Assembly: GCF_002854065.1 (NCBI RefSeq)
Contig: NZ_CP024147.1
Origin: Escherichia coli
Lineage (GTDB): Bacteria > Pseudomonadota > Gammaproteobacteria > Enterobacterales > Enterobacteriaceae
Direction: 5' to 3' (one strand)
DNA: 64,000 nt
Within the stretch, counting starts at the first letter, position 1. Each line of letters begins with the position of its first letter. A program made the position numbers and the translations under genes. Below the pieces are notes generated by a model. The model was given only the letters and a program-made list of their open reading frames with translations, did no database searches and was not told the DNA's origin. This document shows, piece by piece, positions 62,707 to 62,820 of this stretch.

Positions 62707-62820
62707 ATGAACAGCATACTGATAATCACTTCTCTCCTTATCATATTCAGCATTTTTAGTCATGCCCTAATAAAATTAGGGATTGGCATATCCAATAACC
62801 CAGACAAAACCGATGTATAA
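62707..62820 (+). CDS. candidate 37-aa hydrophobic small protein
   Basis: ATG preceded by [41 protein letters not shown], one predicted TM helix; within prophage DNA upstream of ydfK. Confidence 0.35.

Follow-up and report, generated by a model that had tools for sequence, protein, structure and literature searches.

ynfT and ydfK in a Qin-type prophage of Escherichia coli: a 37-codon gene of the YnaM/YnfT small membrane protein family and its phage-borne cassette

The short open reading frame (ORF) that lies upstream of ydfK, near one end of the 64,000-nucleotide stretch of Escherichia coli DNA analysed here (the window), is almost certainly ynfT, the Qin-prophage copy of the YnaM/YnfT small-protein gene, and encodes a real membrane peptide. 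Direct reading of the sequence placed its ATG at 62707 and its TAA at 62818-62820 on the plus strand (ORF 62707..62820, 37 amino acids), and in the best-matching genome the RefSeq ynfT coding sequence maps base for base onto these positions. The gene is already known, having had a name, an annotation and experimental detection since 2018, and curated HMMs for its product exist in NCBIfam, Pfam and PHROGs. This identity, together with a reading of YnfT as an accessory membrane peptide of phages, very probably gives the best overall explanation of the locus. The value of ynfT here is that of a positive control, in that a reader with nothing but the letters was right to single out this 37-codon ORF as a real gene. 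The cassette to which it belongs is found in about half of the complete E. coli genomes and in viable temperate lambdoid phages, is under purifying selection, and in one RNA-seq data set showed an mRNA rise together with the cold-shock regulon.

Identity of the gene and architecture of its peptide

When positions 62400-63200 were searched by megablast against the complete E. coli genomes, matches were obtained in 2808 of 5426, in which the ORF region is annotated as “ynfT: YnaM/YnfT family protein”; the gene itself is carried by 2806 of the 5426, and genomes with two to three ynfT-type copies occur. The same 801-bp stretch is 100% identical to strain 100416, and the window comes from a non-K-12 strain. 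The MG1655 counterpart is ynfT (b4748, 1632890..1633003), located within the “cryptic prophage Qin”, and the peptide is 100% identical to K-12 YnfT/YnaM, with the neighbours ydfJ′, ydfK and pinQ and the ribosome-binding site (RBS) also matching. Over 62600..63130 the window and the Qin copy of MG1655 are told apart by a 1-nt deletion near 62658 and by a synonymous change, at 62730, which is the only difference within the coding sequence. The paralogue in the Rac prophage is ynaM (b4744), which is found there in the mirror-image order pinR-ynaE-ynaM-ttcC.

The assignment to the YnaM/YnfT family is based on HMM scores above the curated cut-offs, on identity to the type member and on the genomic context. 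YnfT scored 63.9 bits against the NCBIfam model NF041477 (YnaM/YnfT; cut-off 35), with residues 2-34 aligned to profile positions 1-34 of 34, and 96.2 bits against the Pfam model PF23676 (YnaM; cut-off 27), with a coverage of 1-37 of 37; it also matches phrog_35882, a PHROGs family to which no function has been assigned. The initial annotation had proposed a genuine small-protein gene in prophage DNA just upstream of ydfK, and all of this was borne out: the ORF is the annotated ynfT, a member of a curated family, MG1655 carries the annotation “cryptic prophage Qin” from the equivalent of about position 62095, and ydfK starts 68 nt downstream, at 62889. It had also placed the ORF below the usual annotation thresholds, which is out of date, as RefSeq/PGAP annotates ynfT in thousands of genomes. 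The features of the locus are the following.

60822..62105, minus strand: remainder of ydfJ (MFS transporter, lacking its N-terminus), truncated where the Qin-type prophage inserted
62352..62706, plus strand: upstream block common to the Qin, Rac, Turner and Tritos copies, presumed to hold the ynfT-ydfK promoter and 5′ leader
62473..62502, plus strand: weak sigma-70-like match, TTCAGA-18-TATACT
62699..62702, plus strand: ynfT Shine-Dalgarno sequence GAGG, 4 nt before the ATG, in columns invariant relative to the Salmonella phage copy
62707..62820, plus strand: ynfT coding sequence, 37 amino acids plus stop, a small membrane protein of the YnaM/YnfT family that equals RefSeq WP_120795384.1 exactly
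62716..62772, plus strand: predicted transmembrane helix, codons 4-22 (19-residue Kyte-Doolittle mean 2.52; AlphaFold2 helix over residues 2-29)
62773..62817, plus strand: polar tail, codons 23-37, of which codons 25-36 specify identical residues in the E. coli and Salmonella forms
62821..62888, plus strand: ynfT-ydfK spacer of 68 nt with the ydfK RBS AAGGA, 62.5% identical in the Salmonella phage copy
62889..63122, plus strand: ydfK coding sequence, 77 amino acids, “cold shock protein YdfK” (PF27475, YnaE) in RefSeq
63439..64000, plus strand: pinQ (DNA invertase) in the RefSeq annotation, running past the end of the window

The architecture read from the letters, that of a 37-residue product with a reasonable RBS, a hydrophobic core followed by a polar tail, and a single membrane span, held up as well. 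The GAGG element is suitably placed, the most hydrophobic 19-residue window covers residues 4-22 and leaves a polar remainder of 15 residues, and AlphaFold2 returned one helix followed by a floppy tail (mean pLDDT 81, rising to 93-94 over residues 1-20). With this hydrophobicity and this length, the helix is long enough to span a bilayer, from which YnfT would be a single-pass peptide of the inner membrane. The sequence has no lipobox, no cysteine and no charged residue in its N-terminal flank. Because the only charge that adjoins the hydrophobic segment is K23, on its C-terminal side, the positive-inside rule weakly favours an N-out/C-in orientation, a prediction kept weak by the net charge of the tail, which is about zero. 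A perfect 7-bp hairpin, CCCTAAT-AAA-ATTAGGG, was seen inside the gene (62765..62781, plus strand, codons 20-25); it is probably non-functional, because it is not kept in the Salmonella phage copy.

Conservation and the ynfT-ydfK cassette

Salmonella phage 118970_sal3 carries a pair of ORFs of 114 and 234 nt that are arranged as in ynfT-ydfK, and in this distant copy the frame, the length and the RBS of ynfT are kept at about 80% nucleotide identity. The 22 differences in 111 nt fall 4/4/14 on the three codon positions, a pattern that by itself cannot exclude antisense coding, since a minus-strand ORF (62760..62828) shares its third-codon positions with ynfT. This antisense ORF was considered as a coding candidate and rejected: its overlap with ynfT is confined to the 3′ part of the gene, and it is without a start codon in the Salmonella copy. 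Every other reading frame of ynfT is closed in both the E. coli and the Salmonella copies. Twelve codons differ by synonymous changes only and eight by replacements, which gives a dN/dS of 0.09 for ynfT, with 0.08 for ydfK; within codons 25-36 there are five synonymous and no non-synonymous differences. Among 15 variants of YnfT, residues K23, I26, G27, S29, N30, N31, P32, K34 and D36 are invariant, and all differences between the coding sequences of the Qin, Rac, Tritos and Turner copies are synonymous. The peptide is under purifying selection along its whole length; conservation of the frame in other prophage copies, one of the checks named in the initial annotation, was thus found in related prophages and phages, that of Salmonella included.

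The family is very narrow. An exact-sequence look-up placed the E. coli form on 999 or more contigs and the Salmonella form on 1000 or more, and single-residue variants were rare. When 1.8 billion cluster representatives were scanned exhaustively with HMMER, four clusters (at 50% identity) were returned, all of them near-identical or truncated. Because there are only four such clusters, the high conservation may in part reflect recent spread and not long-term constraint. When YnfT was compared with phage genomes by tblastn, only residues 23-37 were aligned, in the 11 Escherichia phage records among the 13 records obtained in the DNA search; the helix was presumably masked by the low-complexity filter.

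The comparison with 118970_sal3 also delimits what has moved. Identity is 41% upstream, 79.5% over the RBS and ynfT, 62.5% in the spacer, 83.3% over ydfK and 36% downstream, so that homology starts at the ynfT RBS and stops at the ydfK stop codon; from these sharp edges, the mobile unit is a cassette of two genes. The upstream block behaves differently in the E. coli copies, where identity to K-12 Rac and to phage Turner rises from below 50% to above 92% at about 62352, while conservation of its 62352..62706 interval does not extend to the Salmonella phage copy. The sigma-70-like match within this block is weak, because the promoter scan gave 7 sites where chance would give 5.0. Between ynfT and ydfK the terminator scan detected no terminator-like site.

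The cassette was found in the temperate Escherichia phages Tritos, Turner, Kati, HannyBb, mEp460, 2H10 and the PhiR series. In Tritos the order is exoVIII, xis, int, a gap with an unannotated ynfT, ydfK, pin and the tail fibre genes, and the Turner record, in which the cassette likewise stands between int/attP and pin/tail fibres, annotates the 114-nt ynfT ORF. In 118970_sal3 the cassette has int on one side and the tail-fibre assembly genes on the other, the annotated tail genes of that phage including a baseplate J protein. The site is an accessory region beside attP, which becomes the end of the prophage in a lysogen, as in the window, where the cassette is at the left end of a Qin-type prophage and the junction of chromosome and prophage at about 62095 is marked by the ydfJ remnant. 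ydfJ is a pseudogene in the best-matching genome and an intact 427-aa coding sequence in MG1655. Phage Tritos is homologous to the window from about 62093 onward and appears to share the Qin-type sequence beside the attachment site. An alternative start of ydfK was noted: an in-frame ATG at 62856 (62856..63122, plus strand) would give an 88-aa YdfK, and some phage records use this version, that of Tritos (267 nt) among them, under the label “predicted DNA-binding transcriptional regulator”; the start at 62889 of the 77-aa RefSeq version has the better RBS (AAGGA).

Expression and rival explanations

VanOrsdel et al. 2018 (PMC6001520) reported that 80 small ORFs were SPA-tagged on the MG1655 chromosome and that 36 proteins were detected. 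Its table of new names lists an identical 37-aa peptide twice, as ynaM (ynaE/ttcC, 1434406-1434293) and as “ynfQ” (ydfJ/ydfK, 1632890-1633003), and the same paper counts YnaM and “YnfQ” among those of its small proteins for which a ribosome-profiling screen with tetracycline had likewise been positive. Chromosomal epitope tagging and ribosome profiling, the two experimental checks that had been proposed for the ORF, were therefore already on record with positive outcomes, in K-12, whose peptide is identical to YnfT of the window. The name needs care: the ydfJ/ydfK locus printed as “ynfQ” is now called ynfT, and in RefSeq, in MG1655 and in the y-ome paper “ynfQ” denotes another Qin gene. The list of Qin genes in the y-ome paper begins with ynfT at 1632890, and ynfT is placed there among the Uncharacterized genes.

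Weaver et al. [quoted passage not shown] Because ynaM and ynfT are near-identical duplicates, their reads may have been discarded as multi-mappers. At the RNA level, a table of RNA-seq results (PMC13058169) lists ynfT as increased 5.7-fold and ydfK as increased 5.3-fold, alongside cspI, cspG, cspB, deaD and rhlE, and this one data set supports the co-regulation of ynfT with ydfK and the cold-shock regulon. Short 5′-leader transcripts of ydfK and ynaE that co-immunoprecipitate with Hfq are mentioned second-hand in two further articles (PMC5089854, PMC4152368). The literature open to search yielded no report on the function, partner, localisation or topology of YnfT and no fractionation or reporter-fusion data.

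Some of these observations would also suit an upstream ORF that is mainly regulatory. Long regulatory leaders are typical of cold-shock genes, and ynfT precedes ydfK closely and in the same direction, with a terminator-free gap between them and with mRNAs that increase together; its translation could mainly serve to tune the expression of ydfK (in the cold, for instance) or to make the leader RNA more stable, the peptide being incidental. On such a reading, the “prematurely terminated 5′ leader transcripts” of ydfK/ynaE described in 2011, together with their binding to Hfq, would be the ynfT mRNA. As the main role of ynfT this is unlikely. In typical leader peptides the residues outside the regulatory codons are largely free to vary, whereas in YnfT the whole ORF is under the constraint given above, the 12-residue tail is invariant despite its synonymous changes, and the tagged protein reaches comparatively high levels. 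Attenuation would call for alternative terminator and antiterminator or RBS-sequestering structures, and none was apparent at ynfT: the RNA folds no more stably than shuffled sequences (z = -1.2 for 62690-62900 and -1.0 for 62505-62900), the hairpin within the ORF is absent from the Salmonella copy, and the cspA-type cold box TGACGTACAGA has no match in the leader at up to two mismatches. There are also YdfK homologues that occur in the absence of ynfT. The two roles are not mutually exclusive, and it is as the sole role that regulation by an upstream ORF is disfavoured, because of the selection on amino acids and the absence of a terminator/antiterminator structure. An RNA element in place of a protein was likewise considered and rejected, there being no relevant Rfam match (in the window at gathering thresholds, and in 62100-63500 at E<1) and the folds being unremarkable.

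If the peptide is the product, it might damage membranes in the manner of a type I toxin or a holin, with an antisense RNA or ydfK silencing it, and serve in prophage maintenance, abortive infection or the timing of lysis. It is small, very hydrophobic and prophage-borne, of the size class of Hok, Ldr, Ibs, TisB and DinQ, which are likewise short, very hydrophobic and encoded on mobile elements; a weak sigma-70-like match at 62898..62871, on the minus strand, might give rise to an antisense RNA across the 3′ end of ynfT, and ynaM stands beside ldrB and ldrC in one transcriptome cluster table, as a mere co-listing. This reading is nevertheless very unlikely. Type I toxins are normally repressed, their translation being held down tightly during normal growth, whereas YnfT is, on the evidence of the literature, readily detected and accumulates under such growth; it is also unlike them in being co-directional and co-regulated with a soluble downstream gene. 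No antitoxin RNA was detected in the Rfam search, in which neither strand gave an sRNA match. The only promoter-like match on the minus strand does not exceed chance in the scan described above, and the ORF antisense to the 3′ part of ynfT has no start in Salmonella. The site is an att/tail-fibre accessory region and not a lysis cassette, genomes tolerate two to three copies, and no PADLOC match was obtained, which also led to the rejection of ynfT as a member of a defence system. More remote still is the idea, drawn from inspection only, that the hydrophobic segment is a cleavable export signal, which would be cut after a conserved small-x-small motif, S18-H/Y19-A20, to release a periplasmic or secreted peptide of 17 residues (L/V-I-K-...-NNPDKTD). 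Serine at -3 and alanine at -1 are conserved in both allelic forms, and the invariant part of YnfT coincides with the would-be mature peptide. Sec signal peptides typically have a positively charged n-region, which is missing here (MNS or MDN, with Asp2 in Salmonella), and the AlphaFold2 helix continues through the putative site to residue 29, so that cleavage is extremely improbable. The reading of ynfT as a functionless chance ORF draws on the AT-rich prophage DNA around it (36% GC against 48% for the whole window): in shuffles of the 783-nt intergenic region, an ATG-initiated ORF of at least 37 amino acids appeared in 78%, and the length of the ORF is by itself uninformative for this reason. 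In contrast, such an ORF with a 19-residue Kyte-Doolittle mean of at least 2.5 appeared in just 0.5% of the shuffles, and the retention of frame, length and RBS in the diverged Salmonella copy, the inclusion of YnfT in curated NCBIfam, Pfam and PHROGs families and the experimental detection of the protein all speak against chance, which is effectively refuted by the pattern of conservation together with the published immunoblots.

Proposed role of YnfT and relatives of YdfK

The evidence points to the peptide itself as the functional product of ynfT, because selection acts on the whole peptide, the tail is invariant, the tagged protein accumulates stably and the gene is co-expressed with a cold-inducible one. 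We propose that YnfT would be an accessory inner-membrane peptide of phages, co-expressed with ydfK, that inserts in the inner membrane with a single pass and then binds and modulates a larger membrane protein by means of its helix and its invariant 12-residue tail. Such a partner-binding mechanism is offered tentatively, by analogy, because characterised small membrane proteins of E. coli (AcrZ, MgrB, MgtS, CydX and similar) act in this way. In lysogens that are kept at a low temperature or have reached stationary phase, the peptide would probably serve as a moron-type function of lysogenic conversion.

As general background, small inner-membrane regulators of the AcrZ type invite the comparison that YnfT may work like them. 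AcrZ, MgrB, MgtS, CydX, KdpF and PmrR resemble YnfT in size, in having one hydrophobic helix with a short polar tail and in their stress-linked expression; they differ in being chromosomal and in having known partners, whereas YnfT is phage-borne, is confined to Escherichia and Salmonella phages and has no sequence homology to them. With regard to position, the ynfT-ydfK cassette resembles the morons of lambda (lom/bor) and the cor-type morons of phi80 and N15: it lies between the tail-fibre/invertase genes and attP/int, and both are of low GC content and expressed from the prophage. It has no homology to lom, bor or cor, and is not known to confer an exclusion or virulence phenotype.

A broader picture can be sketched, which we consider improbable: the ynfT-ydfK pair might be a phage-borne, cold-responsive module for lysogenic conversion, in which YnfT would modulate a protein of the host envelope (a phage receptor, transporter or sensor kinase) and YdfK, as a soluble protein resembling YmgB/AriR, would act on a cytoplasmic regulator, and the Hfq-bound, “riboswitch-like” leader RNAs of ydfK/ynaE (2011-2014) would be the ynfT/ynaM mRNA, that is, a dual-function RNA.

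YdfK has a wider distribution than YnfT. Its homologues (PF27475, YnaE) reach Enterobacter and Limnobaculum at 55-64% identity, and at the distant homologue loci (Enterobacter, Limnobaculum and E. coli) neither a ynfT-like ORF nor a tblastn match was found upstream. An obligate pairing of ynfT with ydfK was rejected on these grounds; because distant homologues without ynfT exist, YdfK does not require YnfT, and ynfT is a lineage-restricted addition to the E. coli/Salmonella clade of ydfK. Several of the distant YdfK/YnaE homologues (55-62% identity) face a divergently transcribed ynfU in place of ynfT. YnfU is a small zinc-knuckle protein (PF23499), and the arrangement was noted at three loci of distant YdfK homologues (L010 2218..2379, L012 2170..2370 and L013 2170..2340). 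In the E. coli and Enterobacter loci, the gene of the YdfK homologue adjoins one for a 2860-aa GH94 glycosyl hydrolase. A pattern scan of genome contigs with YdfK returned two E. coli loci, exact peptide patterns being of a kind that reaches close relatives only.

No match to YdfK was found among the local Pfam-A and NCBIfam profiles, and a large protein database tags it with PF27475 (YnaE). AlphaFold2 modelled YdfK as a three-helix protein (mean pLDDT 80.6, pTM 0.69), and the best match of this model in the PDB was E. coli YmgB/AriR (2oxl), with a TM-score of 0.66 when normalised to the query and 0.81 when normalised to the target, a probability of 1.0 and an E-value of 0.045. The modelled likeness to YmgB/AriR is a possible lead to function and is not put forward as a claim of family membership.

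The duplication of these genes in Qin and Rac also bears on a published list of “mutations” in colonies that survived phage (PMC11297538), which includes K51T/T51K in YdfK and Q3R/R3Q in PinQ/PinR; these changes look like the outcome of reads mis-mapped between the Rac and Qin paralogues, or of gene conversion between the two. Position 63040, inside ydfK, is one at which the window differs from K-12 Rac.

Elsewhere in the window, and unrelated to ynfT, the Rfam model RF01407 (STnc560, an sRNA that binds Hfq) was matched over its full length on the minus strand at 52553..52766, with 281.9 bits against a gathering threshold of 55, as the only gathering-level Rfam match in the 64 kb.
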